Source of the DNA: an uncultured Staphylococcaceae bacterium
Lineage (GTDB): Bacteria > Bacillota_I > Bacilli_A > RFN20 > CAG-826
Assembly (NCBI GenBank): GCA_964368105.1
Contig: CAYJAE010000002.1
Span: forward strand, 1 to 32,633
Direction of reading: 5' to 3'
DNA length: 32,633 nt
Part shown: positions 20,015-31,910 of the stretch, piece after piece
Layout of the letters: each line of letters opens with the position of its first letter
Numbering within the stretch: the first letter of the stretch is position 1
Made by a program: the position numbers and the translations under genes
Notes under the pieces: model-generated
Databases searched by the model: none
Told to the model about the DNA's origin: nothing
Seen by the model: only the letters and a program-made list of their open reading frames with translations

Positions 20015-21223
20015 TTAGGAAACTTTAACTTTTTTTAAGATTGTATAACGAGCTATTCCACCTTCTAAATCAAACTTAATTGGTTTAGCAATAAGGGGAG
20101 TTAAGTATTCACTAAAGAGTTTACCGCCATTATTGACGTCTTTAATTAATTCTGGGGACATTTTATGTTCAACGTTCGCAATACCACGTAAGTTTTTAAG
20201 TTTGTAACTTACTTTGTATTCTTTTCCTGGTAAACGGTCAATAATAACCATCATTCCTGATTTACCGGACACGATTTTCTTAACCGCCATCGTTGAAACT
20301 TTAATTGCTTCTTTTTGGTCGATTTCACTAATTGCAAATGTTCCAGCGCGTTGAAGAAGACTAAATTCGATTGGCCGAGTGGAGTAACCTAAACGATCTT
20401 TAACAATTCCTGCGAGTTGGGTGCAGAATCCGCCAAGTTGCATATGACCAAATGAGTCAACGGCTTTATTAACCGCTGGCATTTGGGCTTCAATTCCTTC
20501 ACTAACCACAAAGAGGGCTCTTTTTTTGCTTTCATAAGCTTCTTTTGCTTTTACTAAGAACTCTTCAAGGTCAAATTTTTCTTCAGGAAGATAAATATAA
20601 TCTGGTTTAAGGTCTGGATCTTGGATTAAACTTGCCGCAGCGGTAAGCCAGCCAGCATGACGGCCCATAACTTCAACAATAACGAATTTTGATTTGCTAT
20701 ACACTTTGTTATCTAAGGCAATGTCTTGAATACTTTGGACAACGTAACGCGCTGCACTTGGGTAACCTAAACAGTGATCAGTATAAGCTAAGTCATTATC
20801 AACGGTTTTAGGAATACCAATAACGCGAACATCCGCATTTGCTTTGCGGAAGAAGGTTGATAATTTGTAACAAGTATCCATTGAATCATTACCGCCATTA
20901 ACAAGAACATAACCAATATTATGTTTTTGAACGGTTTTTAAGATTTTTTGATAATCTTCATGATTAATATCACCACTTAATTTATAACGAGTTGTTCCTA
21001 AAGCCGCAGCGGGAGTTTGCTTTAATAATTCGATTTGCGCTTCGTCTTCCTTCCGTAAATCAATTAAGTTGTCGTATAAAAGTCCTTCAATGCCATTTAA
21101 ACTTCCATAAATTCCGCCGATATGGTCCGTTTGGCGTTTTGCTTCTTTAATAACACCATAAAACGAAGTGTTAATGATTGCGGTTGGTCCGCCTGATTGG
21201 AAATACACTAATGCTTTTTTCAT
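20015..21223 (-). CDS. pfp: 6-phosphofructokinase, predicted pyrophosphate-dependent type
   Basis: 402 aa in the PFK-A family. GGND113S occupies the place of GGDGS, and PK139TVDND the place of PGTIDND. The Asp and Lys at these two positions are the classical PPi-PFK discriminators. Confidence 0.85.
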   Translation of the reverse strand: MKKALVYFQSGGPTAIINTSFYGVIKEAKRQTDHIGGIYGSLNGIEGLLYDNLIDLRKEDEAQIELLKQTPAAALGTTRYKLSGDINHEDYQKILKTVQKHNIGYVLVNGGNDSMDTCYKLSTFFRKANADVRVIGIPKTVDNDLAYTDHCLGYPSAARYVVQSIQDIALDNKVYSKSKFVIVEVMGRHAGWLTAAASLIQDPDLKPDYIYLPEEKFDLEEFLVKAKEAYESKKRALFVVSEGIEAQMPAVNKAVDSFGHMQLGGFCTQLAGIVKDRLGYSTRPIEFSLLQRAGTFAISEIDQKEAIKVSTMAVKKIVSGKSGMMVIIDRLPGKEYKVSYKLKNLRGIANVEHKMSPELIKDVNNGGKLFSEYLTPLIAKPIKFDLEGGIARYTILKKVKVS

Positions 21224-21248
21224 TTTTTGCTCCTTTTTTATCCGTAAA

Positions 21249-21257
21249 ATTATAACA
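21249..21257 (-). promoter_or_regulatory. Extended -10 element TGTTATAAT upstream of pfp (normal leader with SD AAGGAG)
   Basis: The - strand reads tgttataat-tttacggataaaaaaggagcaaaaa-ATG. Confidence 0.5.
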
Positions 21258-21267
21258 TGAGACGATT

Positions 21268-22476
21268 TTAAATTCTATCAATAGCGGAAAGTTCTTTGGT
21301 TAAATCCTTAACTCGACGCTTCGCAACTTGCTTGGAAATAATACCTTTTAAAAACTCGTGAATAATAGTTGCGGTCTCCCGGGCCCCCTCAGTCATTAGT
21401 CCGCGCGTCGTCACCGCTGCAAAACCAAGCCGTAATCCAGAAGTTGTATTTGGCCGCTCGTCATCCTTCGGCAGCATATTCTTGTTCGTCGTAATATTAA
21501 TTTCTTCTAACATTGTTTCTGCTTCTTTTCCGGTTAATCCGTAAGAGGCTTTAGTGTTTAGTAAGAAGAGGTGGGTTTCACTCTTACTTGCAACCGCACC
21601 AAACTTAATGAATGTATCAGAAGCAGTTTCAGTATTAAGTAAAACTTGATCAATATAAGTAGTAAATTCTGGTTGAAGCGCTTCGTAAAATGCTTGTGCT
21701 TTCGCCCCAATAATATTTTCAAGTGGTCCACCTTGCATTCCTGGGAAAGTATTAAAATTAACTTTTTTAATAATTTCTTCACTGTTAGTTAGAATGATTC
21801 CGCCACGTGGCCCACGTAGTGTTTTGTGAGTAGTAGAAGTAACAATATCAGCGTGTGGAAAAGGGTTTTGATGCCTTTTTGCCGCGATTAAGCCTGCAAT
21901 ATGCGCCATATCGACCATAAAGTAAGCATTGATGCTTTTTGCAATTTCGCCAATCCGTTTGAAGTCAATTGCAAAAGGATAGGCAGAGAATCCCGCAAGA
22001 ATTAGTTTTGGTTGGAGACTCTTTGCAAGCTCTTGTAAACCGTCATAATCAATCCGTCCGTCATCGAGTAAATGATAATGCGTAACCTCGTAATGTTTTG
22101 AAGAAAAGTTAACCGGACTACCATGCGTTAAGTGTCCACCTTCATTAAGTGAAAGCGTTAAAATCTTATCACCCATTTCGAGGACACTAGCGTAAGCAAT
22201 CATATTAGCACTGCTGCCACTATGCGGTTGAACATTAGCGAATTTTGCGCCAAATAATTCGGTGACTAAATCAATCGCGGTTTGTTCAATTTCGTCAATA
22301 TAACGGCAACCACCGTAATATCTTCGTCCGGGATAGCCTTCCGCATATTTGTTGGTTAAGATTGATCCTGCTAAGGCTCGAACTTTTTTACTTGTAAAAT
22401 TTTCACTAGCAATTAATTCAAGTCCATCATTTTGCCGTTTTGTTTCTGCTTTTAAAAGTTTTAATAATTTATCCAT
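21268..22476 (-). CDS. glyA: Serine hydroxymethyltransferase
   Basis: 402 aa. Has the PLP-lysine motif TSTTHKTLRGPRGG and ELIASENF near the N-terminus. Confidence 0.95.
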   Translation of the reverse strand: MDKLLKLLKAETKRQNDGLELIASENFTSKKVRALAGSILTNKYAEGYPGRRYYGGCRYIDEIEQTAIDLVTELFGAKFANVQPHSGSSANMIAYASVLEMGDKILTLSLNEGGHLTHGSPVNFSSKHYEVTHYHLLDDGRIDYDGLQELAKSLQPKLILAGFSAYPFAIDFKRIGEIAKSINAYFMVDMAHIAGLIAAKRHQNPFPHADIVTSTTHKTLRGPRGGIILTNSEEIIKKVNFNTFPGMQGGPLENIIGAKAQAFYEALQPEFTTYIDQVLLNTETASDTFIKFGAVASKSETHLFLLNTKASYGLTGKEAETMLEEINITTNKNMLPKDDERPNTTSGLRLGFAAVTTRGLMTEGARETATIIHEFLKGIISKQVAKRRVKDLTKELSAIDRI

Positions 22477-22505: not shown

Positions 22506-22528
22506 AACAAATAATGAAGAAGGGCATC

Positions 22529-22580
22529 AAAAAAGCCCACTGCAATGAGTTTTAAGTAAACTTTCCTCACTGGAGTGGGT
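22529..22580 (-). terminator. Rho-independent terminator closing the TIR-NACHT/MBL operon
   Basis: Arms 22535..22549 and 22566..22580 form a stem of about 14 bp. On the - strand RNA it has one mismatch and one G-U pair. It is followed by U6 (plus-strand A6 at 22529..22534). It starts 21 nt after the MBL gene stop. Confidence 0.75.
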
Positions 22581-22601
22581 TTTCGTATTTCATTTAGGAC
22601 A

Positions 22602-23348
22602 TCAAACGTCAAATTTTAGATTATCCGCCCCACAGATGATGCCCCGGTCCTCTAAAGTTTTTTTGTAGAGTTCATAGGCTGCGCCTTCAATCGCAGGATT
22701 TTGGTGGATAGCCACTAACTTCGCTTTAACTTCATTATGATCTAAATAGTTAAAAATTGTTTCGATTGGTGTGTGCATATGACCAGTTGTCGCAGCAAAG
22801 TCCCAAATTTCGATAAAAGCGAGTTTAAACTTATTTAATGGTCTTTCACTTTGAGCAAAATCATTATCAGTCGACACTAAGATTTCATCATTAATATTGA
22901 AACTGTAACTTTGATCACTATGAACATTAGCGTAAAAAGAAACTTTGGTTTTGCCAAGGTGGATAACATCATGTTCAGTGTAAGAGACAAACTTCGCGCG
23001 GTTTACAACTCCAGTTATAGAACCTCCCACATAAGGTGACTTATAGTAAGCTTGTAACAGTTCTCCTGGGGTTTTATTATAAGCATCGGCACTATAAATA
23101 ACGAGTTTATCATGGAGTTTTAGCTCTTCAATTAGGGTTAAACCTAAAGTGTGATCATAGTGATAATGTGATAAAAAGAGGTAGATTTTGTCGTATTTAT
23201 TAACAATATCGATGTATTTCTTTAAATTTAGCAGCCCTGTTCCAGCGTCAATTATGATACATGTTTCTTCGTCATAAATTAAGACTGACGTCGTTTCTTG
23301 GCCGCGTGAATGATACCAGCCATTACTTCCAAGTAAGATTACTTTCAT
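22602..23348 (-). CDS. Metallo-beta-lactamase-fold hydrolase (RNase Z/phosphodiesterase-like), coupled to the TIR-NACHT gene
   Basis: 248 aa. Starts LLGSNGWY...ETTSVLI...IIIDAGTG, then has H61-Y-H-Y-D65-H66 (HxHxDH). Later candidate metal ligands are H143, D161, H190/H192 and H215. The ATG is 1 nt after the TIR gene stop, and SD AAGGAG lies inside the upstream gene. Confidence 0.85.
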   Translation of the reverse strand: MKVILLGSNGWYHSRGQETTSVLIYDEETCIIIDAGTGLLNLKKYIDIVNKYDKIYLFLSHYHYDHTLGLTLIEELKLHDKLVIYSADAYNKTPGELLQAYYKSPYVGGSITGVVNRAKFVSYTEHDVIHLGKTKVSFYANVHSDQSYSFNINDEILVSTDNDFAQSERPLNKFKLAFIEIWDFAATTGHMHTPIETIFNYLDHNEVKAKLVAIHQNPAIEGAAYELYKKTLEDRGIICGADNLKFDV

Positions 23349-23349
23349 C

Positions 23350-26142
23350 TTATAAGTGCTCCTTCATATATTTTTTAACATAAGCGTACCAGCGTTCAAT
23401 ATCTTGATTTCTAAACTCTCGAACTGCACTTCCTTCTTCGAGTATATCTTGAAGAGCAAGAAGCGAGGCAATTTCAATCTCTGCTTCAATTGCTTGGGCG
23501 TGTTCTAAGCCTTTTTCAATCGCTTTTAGTGCTTCAGTTTTTTCTTTTAAGCCGATAAGCGCCATTGCTTCATATAAATATATTTGGAAAGTGTCATAAT
23601 GCGATTCAATAAGGGGCATGATTCGTTTAATACTTTCAACCGCTTTACCGTATTCTTTTAACCCGATTTCTAAAAAGATTGTGGTGTAAATATAGCGAAC
23701 GTAATAGCGGTCCTTTACTTTAAGACGGGTATAAATTTCGCTTGCTTTATCTAAATAATTTTTCGCTAGTTCATAATCCTTATGCCAAATTGCCGAGTCC
23801 GCAAAAACACGAGCGTACTCCGCAATAAACATTTCGTGATTAATCTTATCGTCGTCACTTGATAGTAAAGGAATCGCTTTTTGCAGCATTTTGATACTAT
23901 TTTCTATTTCAAGGTAAGAAGATTCCCAATCAAGTCGTTGGAAAGCAATTTTGCCTTTCATTAAATTCGCTAATGATTTTTCGTATAAAGCATCATTTTC
24001 TCCGCCCAGCGAAAGCGCTAATTTGGTGTAATGATTACTCTCATCAAAGTTAACGAGCTTGCGGTGACTCATCGCTAAAATGCTATAAATCTCGGCGACT
24101 TCCGCAATGGTCAATGCGTCCTTATTTACGAGTAACGGATTAAGTGCATCGACGCCTTCTTTAAATTTTTCCGTAATGTATAGGAAGTTACCTAAAATAA
24201 GTCCGCCATGTTGTCCGTAACTATCTGCCACCTCGTTAAAGGCTTTAATAAGACCGATTTTACTGAGTCTAAAGTAGAGGCCTGAATTATAGAAGTATTT
24301 ACGATGGGTCAAAACTACCTTCATAAAGGTTGGTGAGCGTAAAACATCATGGCAATCAATCTTGCTAAGAGTAAATAATACTTCGAGTTCACCAACAGCG
24401 TCACGCGCAAAAGTATCTAACCCATTTAATTCTAATCTCCGGGCAATGAAAGCTTCATCCTTTAAAAGTCCCGCGGCGTTTTCGGTCTGCCGTGAATTTA
24501 ATAAATGCTTTGTTAAGTAATTAAAGCCGTAATCGTTTAATCGTCCAGTGTAGTATTTGTTAAGGTAATACATACCAATGAAATTATTAGAACTTGACTT
24601 AAAAATACTATACTTTCCACTTGAACTACGATCAATTAACCAATCGATAACACTTTTGTGAATTGGAACAATGTTATTTTCAAAGACCGGAAACATTGCC
24701 GAAATATATTCAACCCGGTCGATAAAAACTTCTTCCTCAAGTTCTAAAATATCATTAATTTCTTCGAGAGGAAGTGGTTCATAGGCACTAACAATAAGTT
24801 GGAAAAGCGGCAAATAATCTTTGAGGTAATTTTGTGGGTTTTCTTTATCTTCAAATAAACGGGTAAAGTAATTTGAGTAAATATTGGTGAGCCCCCGCGG
24901 GAAAGCGCCTTGATCTAAAATACTAAAATGGCCCCGACGGACACTTTTTACAAATTGCGCGACATAAAGAAATCTTCCTTCACTTAGATTATAAATTTCA
25001 TTAACGGTTTGATCGATATCAGGAACAGTTTTAAGTTCCTCCGCTAAATCTTGATAAATAAAGCCAATTACATCCTTTTTGTTTTCTTCTTTATAATCTT
25101 CTAAATTAATACAAAGCTTTGATTTAAAACGTCGCATAATTTCTAACTCGGGCCGTGAAGTAACTAAGAGTTTAAACCATGCCGGAGTTTTCTCGAATTC
25201 ATTAGCCAAAACATCCGCGAGTTCGTTTTTAAGACCAAATTCGGCTTCATCAAGCGCATCAACAATCATGACAATCTTTTCGTTTTGCTTTGGTAAGCTG
25301 TGCAGCGGTTCAACAATTAAGTAAGAAAATAACCGACGGATATTTTTATCATCTAAATTATTTAAGTCATTGAGTTGGAGAAGTGCATTGCGGTAATCTT
25401 CGTTTTGCGTCGCTAAGTGATAAGCGAGAGACTTGATAACGGTTTTCGGATTAGCCCGGTCTGATTCATTATACTTACAAAAGTGAATTGCTTTAATTTC
25501 TGGGTTTTTATGACAAAGTTGAGCAACGATACTTGTTTTACCGCTTCCGGCGTTACCGGTTAAAAACATTATTTTTTCATCGCTCTCTAGCCAATTATTA
25601 TAAATATCTTTGATCCATTCCCGACCAAAGAAGTGCTTATTATGATTAAAGACATAACCATCATTATCAAGGGGACTGAGGGCCATCATCAACTGATTCA
25701 TTTCCCCTTCCATTAATAGCCGTTCTTCGCCTCTTAATACTTTAATAATTTGCGCAAGTTTAGTGCTATAAAATTCATCGTTTATCGTTCCGTCTTCCCG
25801 GTAATAATTAGCGATATTAATATACTGGACTCTCGTTAAGAAGAGAGGTGGTTCCACAGGCTGAATCATTACTGGTAAAAGTTCTTTATTCGTTGTCTTC
25901 GCTAAAGCAAGTTCATCTAAACAAACTCCGCCTGGTCTACGTAGGGAATGGGGACTCATAAAAAACACAACCCATTTTGATTCTTTTATGCCGTTTTCAA
26001 TCGATTCATCAAACCTTGAGCCACCCGTAATATCAGTTTCGTCAATCCAAACATTAAAATTTTCATTCCTTAAATCCTGGTAGATTTTCTTAACGAGTTC
26101 AGCATGATTATCGTGACCATAACTAATAAATATTTTCATCAT
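23350..26142 (-). CDS. TIR-NACHT(STAND NTPase)-TPR protein, candidate anti-phage sensor/effector
   Basis: 930 aa. TIR, aa 1 to about 135: MMKIFISYGHDNH...NVWIDE...VVFFMSP...C74LDE77L. STAND/NACHT: F171FGRE, Walker A G196NAGSGKT, Walker B IVMIVD295ALDE299, L326VTSRP. From about aa 640 to 925 there are TPR-like helical repeats. A strong SD GGAGGA lies 6 nt upstream of the ATG. Confidence 0.88.
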   Translation of the reverse strand: MMKIFISYGHDNHAELVKKIYQDLRNENFNVWIDETDITGGSRFDESIENGIKESKWVVFFMSPHSLRRPGGVCLDELALAKTTNKELLPVMIQPVEPPLFLTRVQYINIANYYREDGTINDEFYSTKLAQIIKVLRGEERLLMEGEMNQLMMALSPLDNDGYVFNHNKHFFGREWIKDIYNNWLESDEKIMFLTGNAGSGKTSIVAQLCHKNPEIKAIHFCKYNESDRANPKTVIKSLAYHLATQNEDYRNALLQLNDLNNLDDKNIRRLFSYLIVEPLHSLPKQNEKIVMIVDALDEAEFGLKNELADVLANEFEKTPAWFKLLVTSRPELEIMRRFKSKLCINLEDYKEENKKDVIGFIYQDLAEELKTVPDIDQTVNEIYNLSEGRFLYVAQFVKSVRRGHFSILDQGAFPRGLTNIYSNYFTRLFEDKENPQNYLKDYLPLFQLIVSAYEPLPLEEINDILELEEEVFIDRVEYISAMFPVFENNIVPIHKSVIDWLIDRSSSGKYSIFKSSSNNFIGMYYLNKYYTGRLNDYGFNYLTKHLLNSRQTENAAGLLKDEAFIARRLELNGLDTFARDAVGELEVLFTLSKIDCHDVLRSPTFMKVVLTHRKYFYNSGLYFRLSKIGLIKAFNEVADSYGQHGGLILGNFLYITEKFKEGVDALNPLLVNKDALTIAEVAEIYSILAMSHRKLVNFDESNHYTKLALSLGGENDALYEKSLANLMKGKIAFQRLDWESSYLEIENSIKMLQKAIPLLSSDDDKINHEMFIAEYARVFADSAIWHKDYELAKNYLDKASEIYTRLKVKDRYYVRYIYTTIFLEIGLKEYGKAVESIKRIMPLIESHYDTFQIYLYEAMALIGLKEKTEALKAIEKGLEHAQAIEAEIEIASLLALQDILEEGSAVREFRNQDIERWYAYVKKYMKEHL

Positions 26143-26411
26143 AAATTATCCTCCTTCATTAAATTCAGAGTTATTTTAGTTAGTCCTGTTTTGTTAATAT
26201 TAGTTTAGCATATTCATCATGTTTTGCGGCTATTTTTTTTGAAAACTATACAAACTGGTCAAACCGCAAATGACATTTAGGCTAAATTCGCCACTTTGTT
26301 TAGGCATAATTTCATAATCTAACCTTAAAAAGAAAGAGAAAGACTTTTGTTTACTCTTAACAAACATAGTTTGTTGCCGCTTTTCTTTCATAGCCCCATA
26401 TTTCCAATTCA

Positions 26412-26420
26412 TGATATAAT
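26412..26420 (+). promoter_or_regulatory. Extended -10 element TGATATAAT for the tctB-like/tctA-like/mevalonate operon
   Basis: The + strand reads tgatataat-taaaattcaaacGGAGtttttagag-ATG(26446). Confidence 0.5.
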
Positions 26421-26445
26421 TAAAATTCAAACGGAGTTTTTAGAG

Positions 26446-26727
26446 ATGAAAAAAAAGAAGACGATGGTACGTTTGTGGGGAGATCATATTGTAATTTCTT
26501 CACTCTTTATTGGGTTATTAATAAGTTTATCGTTAGTAGGTCTTACTTTTGGAATAATTGCGCTTTTAGGCCATTACTATCCAAGTATTGCCGACAATAA
26601 AAAAGATTTAATTTATATATTTGGCACTCTCGCGGTTTTAATCGGTTTTGTTATTAATAACTTATGGATTAAACCGCAACGTAATATTATTACGAAAAAA
26701 CAAAGTGATACCGAGGAAGTAAAATAA
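26446..26727 (+). CDS. Small membrane protein in the TctB position (function inferred from position only)
   Basis: 93 aa from MKKKKTMVRLW. SD GGAG lies 9 nt upstream. It has 2-3 TM helices. Its TAA overlaps the ATG of the TctA-like gene. The track ORF start at 26347 lies upstream of the promoter and is rejected. Confidence 0.55.
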   Translation: MKKKKTMVRLWGDHIVISSLFIGLLISLSLVGLTFGIIALLGHYYPSIADNKKDLIYIFGTLAVLIGFVINNLWIKPQRNIITKKQSDTEEVK

Positions 26728-28133
26728 TGGTAATTACCTTTTCGCTTATTTTACAAATGATCGGTATCTCGCTTTTAATGACTTTAATTTATATCATTAT
26801 CGGTATTATCCCCGGCACTGACGAAACTTCAGTAATTGTACCGATGACAGTAATTCTTGTTTCGCTCCATCTTAATCCCTTAGTCATTATGGCGGGCTTT
26901 ATTAGTGCGGTTGTTACGCTGAATATTGCTGACTCTATTCCGACCGCGATAACGTCCATTCCAGGAGGAGTCATGTCTACACCCCTCGTTGGTCCTAGTC
27001 AAATCCTTAAAAAACACGGCTACACAGCTTACAGTGTGCGCTGGATGATGCTCGGTTCATTAATCGGCGTCTTAGTAAGTCTTCCGCTTGCCCTTGCCTT
27101 TTGGGGAATCTTTGAATTTATCAGTGTTCAAACTGGCTTAGAAATATCAACATTTATCAAAAACTACTCAGAATACATCTTTTTAGGTGGCGCACTCTTA
27201 ATGAGCTTAACGAGTAAAAAGAAACTCGTAAGTCTTCTTTCAATTATTCCGTTTGGTTTCTTAACTGCTTTTATGCGTAATCCGAGTGCTTTACTTAATA
27301 ACACCCTCTTAAATTTTCTTGGTCAAGGCAAAACCTTATCAATGACCCCCTTCTTTTTAGCAATAACGACTGGACCTTTAATTTTTGGTTTATTTGAACT
27401 TGTTTTCCCAAGTGTTTTCCAAAAACAAAAAGTTGAAGGTAAGATTGACGTTGTTTTAGAAGAAAATATTAAAACCGTGAAAACTGGCACGAAGAAAGTA
27501 GTTAAGAAAACCGCAATTGCAAGTGCCCTAGGTAGTTTAATGTTTTTCCTCTCGCCGGTTGGTGTCACCATGATGCTTAGTGAATTTAGTATTAAGGATG
27601 AGAAAGACGAAGTTCAACAAGCACTCCAAGGAGTCGCGGTTGTGAACGGACTATCAAGCGCAACTTACCTTGCGGGTATTCTTATTTCGCTCTTTGTTTT
27701 TGCTTTCCCGCTTTCTCCCGCTGCTCTTGGTCCTGGATCAGTTATTTTTGGAACAGGCGCAAACGGTGCTGACGGCGTTTTTGTGTCCGCTGGTAATACT
27801 GGCTTAACAATTGCTAAACCTACGCTTTTAATGCCAATCCTTATCGGACTAGCAATTGGCGTTTCTTTAACAGTCTGGCTTGGAATGAAGTACTCTTCAA
27901 AAATGACTGAATTAGTTTTTAAATATATTTCCCAAGAAACAGTCTTAATCTTTTTGTTCTCTATTATTGCGCTTCTCTCTCTTGCCGAAGCGGGGATGTA
28001 CGGCTTAATTGTTGTCCTTCTGATTGGTCTCTTTAGTGGCTGGATTAATAAGTTTGGTGCAGGCTACGGCGTGCAGTTTATGGCCCTTTACGCAGGCAAT
28101 TTGTTTGTTAAATTCATTTTAATGTTATTTTAG
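26727..28133 (+). CDS. TctA/DUF112-family permease (large membrane subunit of tripartite tricarboxylate-type transporters), divergent
   Basis: 468 aa, polytopic, with a two-fold internal pattern. GIIPGTDETSVIVPM and SIPGGVMSTPLVG in the first half resemble TctA LPGLGP and NVPGD. LSPVGVTMM and LGPGSVIFG in the second half do likewise. No TctC-like binding protein gene is nearby. Confidence 0.55.
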   Translation: MVITFSLILQMIGISLLMTLIYIIIGIIPGTDETSVIVPMTVILVSLHLNPLVIMAGFISAVVTLNIADSIPTAITSIPGGVMSTPLVGPSQILKKHGYTAYSVRWMMLGSLIGVLVSLPLALAFWGIFEFISVQTGLEISTFIKNYSEYIFLGGALLMSLTSKKKLVSLLSIIPFGFLTAFMRNPSALLNNTLLNFLGQGKTLSMTPFFLAITTGPLIFGLFELVFPSVFQKQKVEGKIDVVLEENIKTVKTGTKKVVKKTAIASALGSLMFFLSPVGVTMMLSEFSIKDEKDEVQQALQGVAVVNGLSSATYLAGILISLFVFAFPLSPAALGPGSVIFGTGANGADGVFVSAGNTGLTIAKPTLLMPILIGLAIGVSLTVWLGMKYSSKMTELVFKYISQETVLIFLFSIIALLSLAEAGMYGLIVVLLIGLFSGWINKFGAGYGVQFMALYAGNLFVKFILMLF

Positions 28134-28141
28134 GAGTAAGT

Positions 28142-29035
28142 ATGGACGGATATAGTTATGGAAAAATTATACTAAGCGGTGAACATAGTGTCGTCTATGG
28201 TAAACCCGCTTTAGCAATTCCTTTTTACGCTTTGCGAAGTGAAGTAGTCTTAACTCCCGCGCCTTCCTTTACGTGGGAAACAAAGTACTTTAACGGCCCC
28301 CTTAGTGAAGGTCCTGCTGAACTTGAAGGTCTTTACGTCTTACTGCGTAAACTATTTAAAGATTTTCCCCGTATTAGTCCCGTTAACATTGCAATTCGCT
28401 CAAACCTTCCTGAAAAAAGTGGACTCGGCAGTAGCGCAAGTATCGCTAAAGCCTTAGTGGACGCTTTTAATAATCATTTTCGCTTAGGTTTAACCAAGGA
28501 AGATTACTTTGCGTATCTCACAATTTCCGAAAATGTTTATCATCATAAAGCAAGTGGCATTGACGCCTCTGTTGTAATTTATGAAACTCCACTTTTATAT
28601 ATTCCTCCGCAAATTACGCCTATTTCGCTGCAAATTACCGGTTTTTTAGTCGCTTTCTACTCAAACACCAATAGCGCAACTAAAGACGCAGTCGCGCTTG
28701 TCTCCCGTCATCCACGGCGTGATGAACTTGTAAGTGAACTAGAGAAAAACACCAAATTACTACAAGAAGCAGCGAAGAGTAATAATTTTGAACTCCTTGC
28801 TACTTCCTTTAATAATAGTCACCTCGCCCTTCGTGAACTTGGGGTTTCTTCTAAGGTATTAGAAGAGTTACGCGCAAAAATCCTTGCAAATGGCGCCGGA
28901 GGTGTTAAAATAACGGGCGGTGGCATGGGTGGCTGTCTCATTGCTTTGTTTAAAACAAAAGCAGCGGCTACTAAAGCCCAAAATACATTGAAAGAGAATC
29001 CAAGTTGGTTAATTGATTTAGGAAAAGTGTCATGA
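28142..29035 (+). CDS. mvk: Mevalonate kinase
   Basis: 297 aa in the GHMP kinase family. Has GKIILSGEHSVVYGKPALA, GLGSSASIAKA and GGGMGGC. SD AGGAG overlaps the tctA-like stop. Confidence 0.92.
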   Translation: MDGYSYGKIILSGEHSVVYGKPALAIPFYALRSEVVLTPAPSFTWETKYFNGPLSEGPAELEGLYVLLRKLFKDFPRISPVNIAIRSNLPEKSGLGSSASIAKALVDAFNNHFRLGLTKEDYFAYLTISENVYHHKASGIDASVVIYETPLLYIPPQITPISLQITGFLVAFYSNTNSATKDAVALVSRHPRRDELVSELEKNTKLLQEAAKSNNFELLATSFNNSHLALRELGVSSKVLEELRAKILANGAGGVKITGGGMGGCLIALFKTKAAATKAQNTLKENPSWLIDLGKVS

Positions 29036-29985
29036 AGTTTAAACGAGCAAATGTAAATATTGCCCTCTTAAAATATTGGGGAAAGGCTGATCAACGGTTA
29101 AAAATACCCCAACAAACAAGTGTTTCAGTAACTGCGGAAGCTTTTTACACCCGGACGAATGTTACGCTTGATTCAAGCTTACCGAAAGATAAAGTTTTTC
29201 TTGATGGTAAAGAATTAACCTCACTCCAATATAACCGTGTTATTCAACATTTAAATGAATTACGCCGTCGCTTTAACCGCACGGAGTATTGTGTTGTTAC
29301 TTCAATGAATAATGTCCCCTTACGCGCTGGCTTTGCTAGTAGTGCAAGTGCCTTTGCGGCCCTTACTGCGGCTTATCTTGACGCAATTGGCGAAAAGGTT
29401 TCCAAAAAAGATATGTCACGCTTAGCACGATTAGGTTCAGGAAGCGCAACACGCTCGGTCCATGGCGGCTTTGTTATTTGGCGGAAAGGCTTTGATCATG
29501 AAAGCAGTTACGCGGAACAACTGAAAATTAAATGGCCAGAATTTCGTTTAATCTTTACCGTTATTGATCCAAGTGTTAAATCTATTTCTAGTCAAGTCGG
29601 AATGCAGTTATGTGTTGAAAAGTCCCGTTCCTTCCCTACCTACGTCACTAAATGCAGTGAAATGGTTGCGCCGATGATTGAAGCGCTCGAAAAGCAAGAT
29701 TTAAAAGCAATTGGCGAAATTAGTGAACGAAGTGCGGAATTAATGCGCAATGTTATGCTTGAAGCTGGCGTTGACTATCACACTCCCAAAACACAAGTCA
29801 TGATTAATCGTATTCATACTTTACGTGATAAATACAATTTACCAGTTTATTACACTTTCGATGCTGGTCCGAATTTAATCTTAATAACCACTAAAGATTA
29901 TGTCGACGAAATATTACCGCACTTAAGAGACGTTGAAACGGTTGTCTCTAAAGTCGGCGGAGGCATTATTGATGAAGATATTTGA
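29032..29985 (+). CDS. mvaD: Diphosphomevalonate decarboxylase
   Basis: 317 aa. Has NIALLKYWGK, GFASSASAFAAL and LARLGSGSATRSVHGGFV. ATGA overlap with mvk. Confidence 0.92.
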   Translation: MKFKRANVNIALLKYWGKADQRLKIPQQTSVSVTAEAFYTRTNVTLDSSLPKDKVFLDGKELTSLQYNRVIQHLNELRRRFNRTEYCVVTSMNNVPLRAGFASSASAFAALTAAYLDAIGEKVSKKDMSRLARLGSGSATRSVHGGFVIWRKGFDHESSYAEQLKIKWPEFRLIFTVIDPSVKSISSQVGMQLCVEKSRSFPTYVTKCSEMVAPMIEALEKQDLKAIGEISERSAELMRNVMLEAGVDYHTPKTQVMINRIHTLRDKYNLPVYYTFDAGPNLILITTKDYVDEILPHLRDVETVVSKVGGGIIDEDI

Positions 29986-30946
29986 GAAAGTTCCCGGTAA
30001 ACTTTATATCATTGGTGAATATAATGTTTTAAAAAGTGGTCATAGTGCCTTAATTGCGCCTGTTAATCTCTTTTTACAAGGAACCCTCATCCCTAACGGA
30101 AAAACAACAATTATTGAAGGCGGCAAAACTTATCCTTATACTGAGCTTTTAAGTAAAGCCCCGCATCAATTAGAAAACACCGTTGCGACTATTACATTCT
30201 TTAATGAATACTTAGCCAGTCACAGGATTAGTATTCGTGAATTTGAATATACAATTGAAAATAACTTAATTAGTGACGAACAAATAAAGTATGGACTTGG
30301 GAGCAGTGCCGCAAGTATTGTTTTAACTTTAAAACTTTTAAACCGCCTTTATAACACTAATCTCTCGCCGCTTACCCTTTTTAAAATGGCAGTGCTCATT
30401 CAACGCCGACTAAATACGCTTAGCTCTGGGGGCGACTTAGCGGTTGCGCTTTATGATATTCCGCTTTTTTATACACGTTACGACCTTGAATGGCTCTTAA
30501 ATGAAAAAGAAGACTTAGCGCTTTTAGAACAAAACTGGCCACTTTTAACAATTAAACTAATGACAACTGTCCCACTCTTCTTAGTGGGCTGGACCAAAGA
30601 AACAATAAAACCTTCACCTAACGGCATTATTGATCCTTCTTTCTTTATTCGCGCTCAAAAACTTGTGGAAAACTATTACTTAACCTTTGATTCAAGCTAT
30701 ATTGCCCAGTATCAAGAACTTTTAACGGAGTTAGCTTTTGAGAAGAAAAACATGATGACCCCTAAACTTAGTGCCTTAATTAGTAGCGCTAATTCATTAG
30801 GAGTAGCCGCTAAAATTTCTGGAGCAGGCTATGGCGACTGTGGGATTGCGCAGATTGATGATCTTAACACGATTACACCACTCGTAAATTTATGGCACAA
30901 TAATGATATCGAAGTCTTAAATATATGGAGAAGAGATAATGAGTAA
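29972..30946 (+). CDS. mvaK2: Phosphomevalonate kinase (GHMP type)
   Basis: 324 aa from MKIFEKVPGKLYIIGEYNVL. SD GGCGGAGG lies upstream and the gene overlaps mvaD by 14 nt. Has GLGSSAASIV and SGAGYGDCG motifs. Confidence 0.88.
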   Translation: MKIFEKVPGKLYIIGEYNVLKSGHSALIAPVNLFLQGTLIPNGKTTIIEGGKTYPYTELLSKAPHQLENTVATITFFNEYLASHRISIREFEYTIENNLISDEQIKYGLGSSAASIVLTLKLLNRLYNTNLSPLTLFKMAVLIQRRLNTLSSGGDLAVALYDIPLFYTRYDLEWLLNEKEDLALLEQNWPLLTIKLMTTVPLFLVGWTKETIKPSPNGIIDPSFFIRAQKLVENYYLTFDSSYIAQYQELLTELAFEKKNMMTPKLSALISSANSLGVAAKISGAGYGDCGIAQIDDLNTITPLVNLWHNNDIEVLNIWRRDNE

Positions 30947-31910
30947 AAGCCGGAAAGATGATCATCTGAAGTTAGCCTTAGATTCTTCCCTTACTAATAA
31001 CGAATTTAGTGCTATTCGTTTTAAGCACGTTAGTATTCCTGATTATTCATTAAATGATATTAATCTTGAAACTGAAATACTTGGAAAAGTTTTCCCCCTT
31101 CCTTTCTACATTAATGCGATGAGTGGCGGGAACGCTTCCGGAAACATCATGAATTTAAAACTCGCTGCGCTTGCAAGTCACTTTAATCTGCCGTTTTTCC
31201 TCGGCTCCCAATCAGTCGCACTAAAAGACGCTAAAGAGGAAGTCGCTTATCTTGAATTACGAAATAAATATCCTAATTTATTTATTGTCGCTAACGTTAA
31301 TCCTAATGTTAGTGTGGAAGAGGCAAAGCGAGCCATTAAAATGGTCAGCGCAAACGCCTTAGCCATTCACATTAATAGTGTTCAAGAGTTAGTAATGAGT
31401 GAAGGTGACCGTGACTTTTCACTTTGGAGTAAAAATATTAAAGCAATACTTAAGAATATTAGTGTTCCCGTTATTATTAAAGAAGTTGGCTACGGGATGA
31501 GTCACGAAACACTTGTTAAACTAAGTAACTTAGGCGCTCATTACATTGATATAAGTGGGGCTTCCGGCACTAACTTTACGAAAATCGAATTAGCGAGATC
31601 AGGCGTAGAAAATTCTTCTCTGCTTGATTTTGGTCGTCCTACCATTTCTTCGCTTCGTGACGCCCTTACTTTTGACGCCTTTAGTGTTCACGCTAGTGGG
31701 GGCATTAACAACGCTGGCAGTATTGTTAAGTGTCTCGCTTTCGGCGCTCAAGCTGTCGGGATGGCGCATTACTTCTTAAAACTAAGTGAATTACCGCTTG
31801 AAGAAATGATTAAAACTGTTGAATTATTAATTACGGACATTAAAAAGATTTTATTATTACTCAATGTAAAAAGCATTAAAGAATTAAAAGTCGAACATTT
31901 AGAATTTTAA
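30939..31910 (+). CDS. fni: Type 2 (FMN-dependent) isopentenyl-diphosphate delta-isomerase
   Basis: 323 aa. Has an N-terminal RKDDHL, TIM-barrel motifs IKEVGYGMS and DISGASGTNF, and ASGGI. Confidence 0.92.
   Translation: MSKSRKDDHLKLALDSSLTNNEFSAIRFKHVSIPDYSLNDINLETEILGKVFPLPFYINAMSGGNASGNIMNLKLAALASHFNLPFFLGSQSVALKDAKEEVAYLELRNKYPNLFIVANVNPNVSVEEAKRAIKMVSANALAIHINSVQELVMSEGDRDFSLWSKNIKAILKNISVPVIIKEVGYGMSHETLVKLSNLGAHYIDISGASGTNFTKIELARSGVENSSLLDFGRPTISSLRDALTFDAFSVHASGGINNAGSIVKCLAFGAQAVGMAHYFLKLSELPLEEMIKTVELLITDIKKILLLLNVKSIKELKVEHLEF

Follow-up and report, generated by a model that had tools for sequence, protein, structure and literature searches.

The stretch of DNA analysed here (the window) comprises positions 1 to 32,633 of contig CAYJAE010000002.1 (32,633 nucleotides; GenBank assembly GCA_964368105.1), from an uncultured Staphylococcaceae bacterium. 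A two-gene unit lies on its reverse strand: a gene for a 930-aa NLR-like protein with TIR, NACHT and TPR-like parts (the receptor), followed directly by a gene for a 248-aa protein of the metallo-beta-lactamase (MBL) fold. This unit, a TIR-NACHT gene with a coupled hydrolase gene, is apparently an undescribed variant of TIR-based defence. The coordinates of the two genes and of their parts are given in Table 1.

Table 1. Features of the two-gene unit, with positions in the window.
Feature	Position	Strand	Basis
TIR-NACHT-wHTH-helical-repeat (NLR-like) gene, 930 aa	23350..26142	-	ORF, Pfam, AF2, fold matches
TIR domain, aa 4-113, predicted NADase, catalytic Glu E77 (C-L-D-E motif)	25804..26133	-	TIR_2 E 1.6e-23
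NACHT/NPHP3_N-type STAND NTPase core, aa 179-358 (Walker A GNAGSGKT, Walker B DALDE)	25069..25608	-	Pfam, conservation
TANC1-type winged-helix domain (HTH_TANC1), aa 443-556	24475..24816	-	PF25521 27.2 bits, cut-off 27
C-terminal TPR-like alpha-solenoid, aa ~563-929, presumed sensor	23356..24456	-	AF2 all-helical repeat, profile match
MBL-fold class II phosphodiesterase-like gene, 248 aa (YhfI/Apyc1/PhnP/short RNase Z branch)	22602..23348	-	ORF, Lactamase_B, NCBIfam, AF2, Foldseek
HxHxDH metal-binding motif of the MBL (H61-Y-H63-Y-D65-H66)	23151..23168	-	invariant in 22 MBL relatives
Translational-coupling junction	23346..23364	-	SD AAGGAG 23359-23364, TAA 23350-23352, one spacer base, ATG 23346-23348
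SD AAGGAGG of the TIR-NACHT gene	26150..26156	-	sequence read; 7 nt ahead of ATG (26140-26142)
Intrinsic terminator downstream of the MBL gene	22528..22585	-	hairpin -21.3 kcal/mol, z = -2.98, then UUUUUU
wHTH, winged helix-turn-helix; ORF, open reading frame; AF2, AlphaFold2; NADase, NAD+ glycohydrolase; SD, Shine-Dalgarno sequence

The receptor and its coupled hydrolase

Both ORFs were found where an earlier reading of the letters and their translations (the sequence-only reading) had placed them. The stop codon of the receptor gene and the start codon of the MBL gene were separated by 1 nt, and the SD of the MBL gene lay inside the receptor coding sequence; the junction was read directly as AAGGAG-CACTTA-TAA-G-ATG (AAGGAGCACTTATAA-G-ATG), in agreement with that reading. 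The strong SD that it had assigned to the pair was also present, and the dedicated terminator that it had put at 22529..22580 corresponded to a stable hairpin with a U-run. No further gene was found in the unit, which the terminator bounds after the MBL gene. In the 204-nt spacer upstream of the receptor gene (26143-26346), no consensus promoter was returned by a simple sigma-70 scan.

The TIR and NACHT-type STAND architecture proposed for the receptor agreed with the Pfam scan, and the motifs FFGRE, GNAGSGKT, IVMIVDALDE and LVTSRP were all located in the translation. NPHP3_N (PF24883) covered aa 179-330 (89.3 bits, E 4e-25) and NACHT (PF05729) scored above its threshold (34.8 bits, cut-off 26.7), while no trypsin or other protease/peptidase domain was detected by Pfam in the 930-aa protein. 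In the homolog alignment, G199, G201, K202 and D295-E299 of the NACHT core were invariant, and the P-loop lysine was retained as xPGxGK[TS] in the receptors of a clade with inositol monophosphatase (IMPase)-family partners (see below). The E77 residue of the TIR domain was invariant among 25 homologs and its C-L-[DN]-E motif was kept in 29 of 31 loci. In a family profile search, the best TIR alignment was to the NADase TIR of SARM1/TIR-1, and E77 was aligned with the catalytic Glu of SARM1 and with the Glu of 'HKEL' in C. elegans TIR-1/SARM1, the position of the conserved Glu in NADase-type TIR domains (SARM1 E642, AbTir-type Glu).

The C-terminal ~370 aa (~563-929) were all-helical in the AF2 model of the receptor (predicted local distance difference test score, pLDDT, 86). 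The sequence-only reading had recognised this TPR-like helical repeat correctly and had made it too short, at about 290 aa. TPR_2 of Pfam matched the repeat weakly (E 0.007), and the family profile matched consensus-TPR proteins over aa ~644-762. The folds closest to the model were the STAND-TPR protein 6MFV, Avs3 (8DGC) and the plant TIR-NLR RPP1. By architecture and modelled fold, the protein would be an NLR-like receptor-effector, for which NADase activity is predicted.

The second protein had been described as an HxHxDH MBL-fold enzyme, and Lactamase_B indeed matched it above the cut-off (38.6 bits, cut-off 22.7). The HxHxDH residues, together with D34, H143, D161, H192 and H215, were conserved without exception in the 22 MBL relatives, down to 15% identity. 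Two NCBIfam models gave matches that stayed far under their own cut-offs, namely RNase Z (2e-9) and 'cyclic nucleotide-degrading phosphodiesterase' (5e-7). When the AF2 model (pLDDT 90) was searched with Foldseek, the matches included the BA1088/ELAC-like structure 1ZKP, B. subtilis YhfI (6KNS) and Apyc1 (7U2R, 7U2S, 7T28), as well as AMP/GMP-bound Brucella MBLs, PhnP-family cyclic-phosphate diesterases and short RNase Z. Their TM-scores were 0.64-0.76 (0.64-0.68 for the three Apyc1 structures), except for E. coli PhnP (3G1P; 0.59-0.62). A profile search concurred with this placement; the identity to solved Apyc1/YhfI-type members was just 14-19%, and the Apyc1 structures were not reached by phmmer with the single MBL sequence. 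In precomputed Pfam annotation, PF23023 (Anti-Pycsar_Apyc1) is assigned to the 99%-identical protein P0001 and to other partner MBLs. In the local Pfam scan, PF23023 was not listed for the window MBL at E<=0.1, and the upstream-type partners described below reached 43-46 bits against a cut-off of 50. The RNase Z exosite, a beta-CASP or ComEC-like domain and any domain for ligand sensing (SLOG, SAVED, CARF, Macro) were all missing from the 248-aa protein. Profile and fold comparison of both proteins, as the sequence-only reading had envisaged, set the receptor near Avs3/RPP1 and the MBL near the YhfI/Apyc1/PhnP diesterases. On its model and sequence, the MBL belongs to the small-molecule or RNA-end diesterase branch (YhfI/Apyc1/PhnP-like). 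It is Apyc1-like in its modelled fold, not a demonstrated Apyc1, and its enzymatic activity is a prediction.

Conservation, mobility and interchange of the partner

The relatives of the receptor comprised ~40 full-length proteins at 27-39% identity and one at 79%. The species-level scan (one genome per species) gave 80 loci, mostly from gut and rumen metagenome-assembled genomes (MAGs); the hosts included Clostridia, Bacilli, Lachnospiraceae, Christensenellaceae, Anaeroplasma, Sphaerochaetaceae and the isolate Olsenella sp. An293. Loci in species-representative genomes were considered assessable when a full-length family member was present with enough flanking DNA (n = 25). At 24 of these 25 loci, the receptor gene was tightly coupled to a gene for a small hydrolase with the same orientation. 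The gaps between receptor and partner in homologous loci ranged from -11 to +25 nt, and ATGA overlaps and gaps of 0-1 nt were frequent. These partner classes were absent from ~50 more distant relatives that had just the TIR-NACHT part in common.

The sequence-only reading had proposed to look for MBL genes beside TIR-STAND genes elsewhere, and context look-ups showed them: the 248-aa MBL gene abutted receptor homologs of just 36% identity (L003-L009), and the 79%-identical pair (L001) was found in an entirely different context, between cysS/SpoU and secE/nusG, whereas the window pair stands beside glyA/pfk. An outer-flank homolog was common to 13 of the 465 locus pairs, mostly closest relatives. 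Since the outer flanks are almost never common, the adjacency is not inherited housekeeping synteny, and vertical descent alongside housekeeping genes was dropped as an explanation. The identities of receptor and partner were strongly correlated (Spearman rho 0.91 for MBL, 21 pairs; 0.89 for IMPase, 120 pairs). In the reverse survey, 72 metagenome loci with MBL relatives were inspected, and a receptor gene was present only at the closest one (L095); the wider MBL family is unlinked to TIR-NACHT genes (1/72 loci), and the partner therefore represents one sub-branch, recruited from an MBL family that is larger and independent. Viral contigs were scanned with the TIR-NACHT alignment and with the MBL alignment; both scans were empty, and a prophage or phage origin of the pair was dropped. 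The pairing is not due to chance, and the pair is a horizontally mobile functional unit.

The class of the partner followed the receptor tree. A downstream MBL is characteristic of the clade of the window; in its sister clade (L014, L017), the partner is a HAD-IIB phosphatase of the Cof type. In a large clade at ~30% identity, the partner is an IMPase-family enzyme, often together with an upstream MBL, PHP or HAD. The IMPase-family partners were closest to HisN/CysQ/NADP-phosphatase relatives, under the equivalog cut-offs. The upstream slot, which varies more than the downstream slot, was occupied by a second Apyc1-like MBL of ~226 aa (nine loci), a PHP phosphoesterase resembling 3',5'-bisphosphate nucleotidase/RNase RNM (two loci) or a HAD-IA protein (one locus). 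Further genes in this slot encoded a methylthioadenosine/S-adenosylhomocysteine (MTA/SAH) nucleosidase, which passed its equivalog cut-off (L019), RimK-type ATP-grasp enzymes and a shikimate-kinase-like P-loop kinase. The active sites of the partners were kept: DPIDGT in IMPase, DxDGT/GDxxND in HAD and all metal ligands in MBL. Beside distant TIR-NACHT relatives, a Cupin-NUDIX gene was found 3 nt downstream (L054:7833-8717), a 384-aa IMPase-family gene 48 nt upstream (L052:3798-4952) and RyR-domain genes directly upstream (L010-L013; 7 nt in L010). The conserved feature is thus a TIR-NACHT-TPR protein plus a phosphoester hydrolase, the MBL being one of several partners (HAD-Cof, IMPase, PHP, NUDIX).

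Relation to known systems and proposed role of the hydrolase

The pair was not covered by any model of PADLOC v2: neither protein was matched in full, the MBL had no match at all (zero at E<=0.1), and no model extended over the NACHT and sensor part of the receptor, the TIR part of which gave weak ThsB matches. The other partner classes had no model match either, except for a weak PNP match. In a literature search of incomplete coverage, no description was found of a TIR-NACHT gene with an Apyc1-like, HAD or IMPase gene as its coupled partner. The pair had been regarded in the sequence-only reading as an uncatalogued two-component variant. A STAND protein with a separate MBL is already known (Avs1/trypsin-MBL), and the present pair is of another kind.

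The N-terminal domains of bNACHT proteins include TIR (Kibby et al., bioRxiv 10.1101/2022.07.19.500537), and bNACHT genes are reported to be rarely in operons. The receptor has the same tripartite plan as bNACHT and TIR-carrying Avs proteins (N-terminal enzymatic effector, NACHT NTPase, C-terminal repeat sensor), with a NACHT module above the Pfam cut-off and with Walker A and B motifs. It differs in the conserved, translationally coupled hydrolase gene, which is a feature of the present family, and its hosts are gut and rumen Firmicutes-type MAGs; the likeness to bNACHT is known here from sequence and fold.

In Avs1, Hachiman and Lamassu, the MBL of the trypsin-MBL nuclease-protease module is a ComEC-like DNase proenzyme that requires the fused trypsin (PMC12799240). 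The Avs1 arrangement likewise consists of a STAND NTPase gene and a separate MBL-fold gene (PMC12799240; bioRxiv 10.1101/2025.09.03.673762). However, the Avs1 MBL is a ~46-kDa protein with gating loops; its gene precedes that of the STAND protein, which carries a fused trypsin domain that activates the MBL. The present MBL has 248 aa, is encoded downstream and is of the YhfI/Apyc1/PhnP branch, and its receptor has a TIR effector instead of a protease. Identity with Avs1/trypsin-MBL was ruled out by the missing protease, the lack of a PADLOC Avs1 match and the different MBL branch.

The Apyc1/YhfI class II phosphodiesterases (PMC9117128; PMC11724313) share the fold branch and the metal ligands (HxHxDH, binuclear site) with the present MBL. 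Apyc1 is encoded by phages, hydrolyses cCMP/cUMP and blocks Pycsar, whereas the present gene is chromosomal and stands beside a host TIR-NACHT gene, neither alone nor beside a cyclase. Most bacterial Apyc1 homologs are chromosomal as well and have been proposed to regulate housekeeping cyclic nucleoside monophosphates (cNMPs; PMC11724313). In Thoeris and its antagonists (Tad, RyDEP; PMC13232231), a TIR protein makes molecules derived from ADP-ribose (ADPR), as the present TIR domain may do, and separate proteins hydrolyse or bind them. The present unit differs in that the TIR domain is fused to its own STAND sensor and no ThsA-like signal-activated effector is encoded, be it a SLOG/Macro-linked SIR2, TM or caspase-like protein; moreover, Tad and RyDEP are phage-encoded, whereas the candidate for product handling is here host-encoded and co-transcribed with the TIR gene. 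A Thoeris-like signalling pair was ruled out, the second gene being an MBL with no sensor domain and the unit having no signal-responsive effector. A conceptual likeness is found in aRES, a defence by a RES-domain NAD+ phosphorylase, which depletes NAD+ and makes ADPR-1P, a product that phage NARP1 cannot recycle (bioRxiv 10.64898/2026.01.28.702374). It is a precedent for an NAD+ arms race that is settled by the chemistry of the product. The single aRES enzyme achieves this by phosphorolysis, whereas a second hydrolase would be needed in the present unit.

We tentatively favour, at somewhat less than an even chance, a reading in which the receptor is an NLR-like TIR NADase and the hydrolase encoded with it processes the nucleotide made by the TIR domain. 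If the receptor works like Avs, bNACHT and plant TNL proteins, its C-terminal solenoid would bind a trigger, the NACHT NTPase would then oligomerise, and the clustered N-terminal TIR domains would become an active NAD+ glycohydrolase or cyclase. The coupled MBL would be a small binuclear-metal phosphodiesterase acting on a small nucleotide, not on DNA, and its likeliest substrate would be the TIR product itself (ADPR, a cyclic ADPR isomer or a cyclic-phosphate nucleotide). Unrelated folds that hydrolyse small phosphoesters or nucleotides swap in the coupled slot, and action on a small nucleotide would therefore be the simplest common denominator. The NUDIX and RyR partners of the distant relatives are in keeping with this; ADPR pyrophosphatases are common among NUDIX enzymes.

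Two purposes may be envisaged for such an activity. The product could be destroyed, so that the loss of NAD+ would be irreversible and phage NARP1, which needs ADPR, would be left without substrate. Alternatively, leaky product could be cleared, by which the activation threshold would be set or reset, in line with proposals made for host-encoded Apyc1 (PMC9117128) and, in TIR systems, for Macro domains (PMC9503650). Disposal is slightly favoured over buffering because the operon has no signal-responsive effector. In its most specific form, the proposal states that the partners in this family (MBL diesterase, HAD, IMPase, PHP, NUDIX) dispose of what the NLR-like TIR NADases make, by catabolising ADPR-type products, and so keep phages from reconstituting NAD+; we hold this to be rather unlikely. 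If true, it would represent host counter-counter-defence within an operon and would give a defence-side role to bacterial Apyc1-like enzymes, so far regarded just as phage anti-defence or housekeeping cNMP phosphodiesterases.

The translational coupling suggests a fixed stoichiometry, which, along with the strong co-divergence of partner and receptor and the shift of partner class with the divergent sensor clade, would suit a hydrolase bound to the TPR sensor as a co-sensor. It could act as guardee or decoy of a nucleotide-metabolising host enzyme, or of an Apyc1-like enzyme, targeted by phages, and perturbation of the bound hydrolase would release or activate the receptor. Sensing that depends on host factors is documented for bNACHT25 (DnaJ) and Avs7 (EF-Tu), and a decoy logic is documented for Panoptes. 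A pure decoy would have no need of the catalytic motifs, yet these are intact in all partners over deep divergence, and some loci have two different hydrolases flanking the receptor; we regard this model as unlikely. The STAND-associated MBL nucleases of Avs1 (PMC12799240), the RNase Z similarity, which was the best in NCBIfam and recurred among the fold matches, and the depletion of deoxynucleoside triphosphates by PUA-Cal-HAD, an example of a HAD/calcineurin module as effector, could suggest instead that the MBL is the killer (a nuclease, a tRNA-cleaving RNase Z-like enzyme or a depleter of nucleotide pools) activated by TIR-NACHT or by a TIR signal. Against such an effector stand the absence of a protease domain and of a PADLOC Avs1 match, the small size and downstream position of the MBL, which has none of the RNase Z, beta-CASP, ComEC-like or ligand-sensing additions and has small-molecule diesterases as top folds, its replacement by IMPase or HAD-Cof in sister clades, and the TIR effector that the receptor already possesses with its catalytic Glu intact. 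This role is considered improbable. Ordinary housekeeping hydrolases that happen to lie beside TIR-NACHT genes, or a unit that regulates nucleotide or cofactor metabolism outside defence, would fit the housekeeping flanks with few defence genes near, the common housekeeping families among the partners (IMPase, HAD, MTA nucleosidase, shikimate-kinase-like) and the cNMP role proposed for most chromosomal Apyc1 homologs (PMC11724313). This is hard to reconcile with an adjacent hydrolase at nearly all assessable loci although the outer flanks are unrelated, with the ATGA overlaps and minimal gaps, with a pair that moves as a unit (79% identity, L001) and with a partner that is a specialised offshoot, remoter MBL homologs being unlinked to TIR-NACHT. 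The TIR-STAND-repeat plan, moreover, is otherwise known just from immune or conflict proteins. Coincidence or a non-defence function is thus judged improbable.

Several observations weigh against a product-handling hydrolase in a defence unit. Single-gene TIR-STAND systems function without a hydrolase, so a partner is not mechanistically required. Co-divergence and 1:1 coupling are equally well compatible with a physical complex, as in the guard model. The defence role is drawn from the architecture, the patchy distribution and the mobility of the unit, and the defence-island neighbourhood that the sequence-only reading had proposed to check was not borne out: the outer flanks (137 ORFs at 29 loci, PADLOC and Pfam) held mostly housekeeping families and few convincing defence matches. 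Some upstream-slot genes (the L019 nucleosidase, the ATP-grasp and shikimate-kinase-like genes) may be mere housekeeping neighbours. One full-length family member had no partner (L030), and one orphan MBL of the partner type (L094:2469-3218; 249 aa, 245 bits to the partner hidden Markov model) had no TIR-NACHT gene. Upstream of this orphan, 1.2 kb lack any clean long ORF and may be the remains of a receptor gene; in L030, a convergent alkaline phosphatase gene follows the receptor (L030:7856-9160).

TIR-STAND/NLR-like receptors are usually treated as self-contained, single-gene sensor-effectors. A mobile receptor that is always paired with a small nucleotide hydrolase implies an added step after TIR activation, namely disposal, tailoring or buffering of the product. 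The pairing bears on the resistance of NAD+-depleting defences to phage NAD+ reconstitution (NARP1/2/3), on the role of the many chromosomal Apyc1-like phosphodiesterases in bacteria and on the regulation of TIR output, in parallel to plant NUDT7 or Macro-domain regulators. The MBL, HAD, IMPase and NUDIX swaps provide a natural set of variants.

Genomic setting and neighbouring genes

The flanks of the unit in the window (20015-22476 and 26347-31910) are housekeeping genes. Downstream lie a glyA-like gene (21268-22476, reverse strand) and a phosphofructokinase-like gene (20015-21223, reverse strand). The divergent upstream flank starts with a small membrane ORF, which is followed by a TctA-family transporter gene (26727-28133, forward strand), GHMP-kinase-type genes of the mevalonate pathway (28142-30946, forward strand) and a gene for an FMN_dh protein (30939-31910, forward strand). 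The GC content across the window showed no step where the module begins or ends.

From sibling assemblies (contigs of 18.5 and 27 kb), only short pieces of the two proteins are present in the clusters at 90% identity (receptor 71-107 aa, MBL 64-184 aa). The receptor and MBL genes of these close relatives may be pseudogenised, or the assemblies may contain frameshift errors.

Near other family loci, transposase fragments, an AAA+/ClpB-like ATPase gene and a gene for a 1055-aa TIR-WD40 protein were seen in L003 (12345-14820), and a DDE transposase gene with a Phd/Fic toxin-antitoxin pair in L007 (10926-12568). Divergent Inositol_P and HAD_2 genes lie just upstream of the receptor gene in L007.

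Phage RyR-domain proteins hydrolyse or sequester 2'/3' cyclic ADPR (PMC13232231), and given that these phage proteins act on cyclic ADPR signals, host RyR genes beside TIR genes merit study. In L010 (303-12793), the island around the RyR genes is TIR-rich and holds ThsB_TIR, TIR-WD40, TIR-FGE-sulfatase and DUF4062-WD40 genes. In L011-L013 (2783-8929), a gene of the APH/choline-kinase fold was found 5 nt downstream of the distant TIR-NACHT relative.

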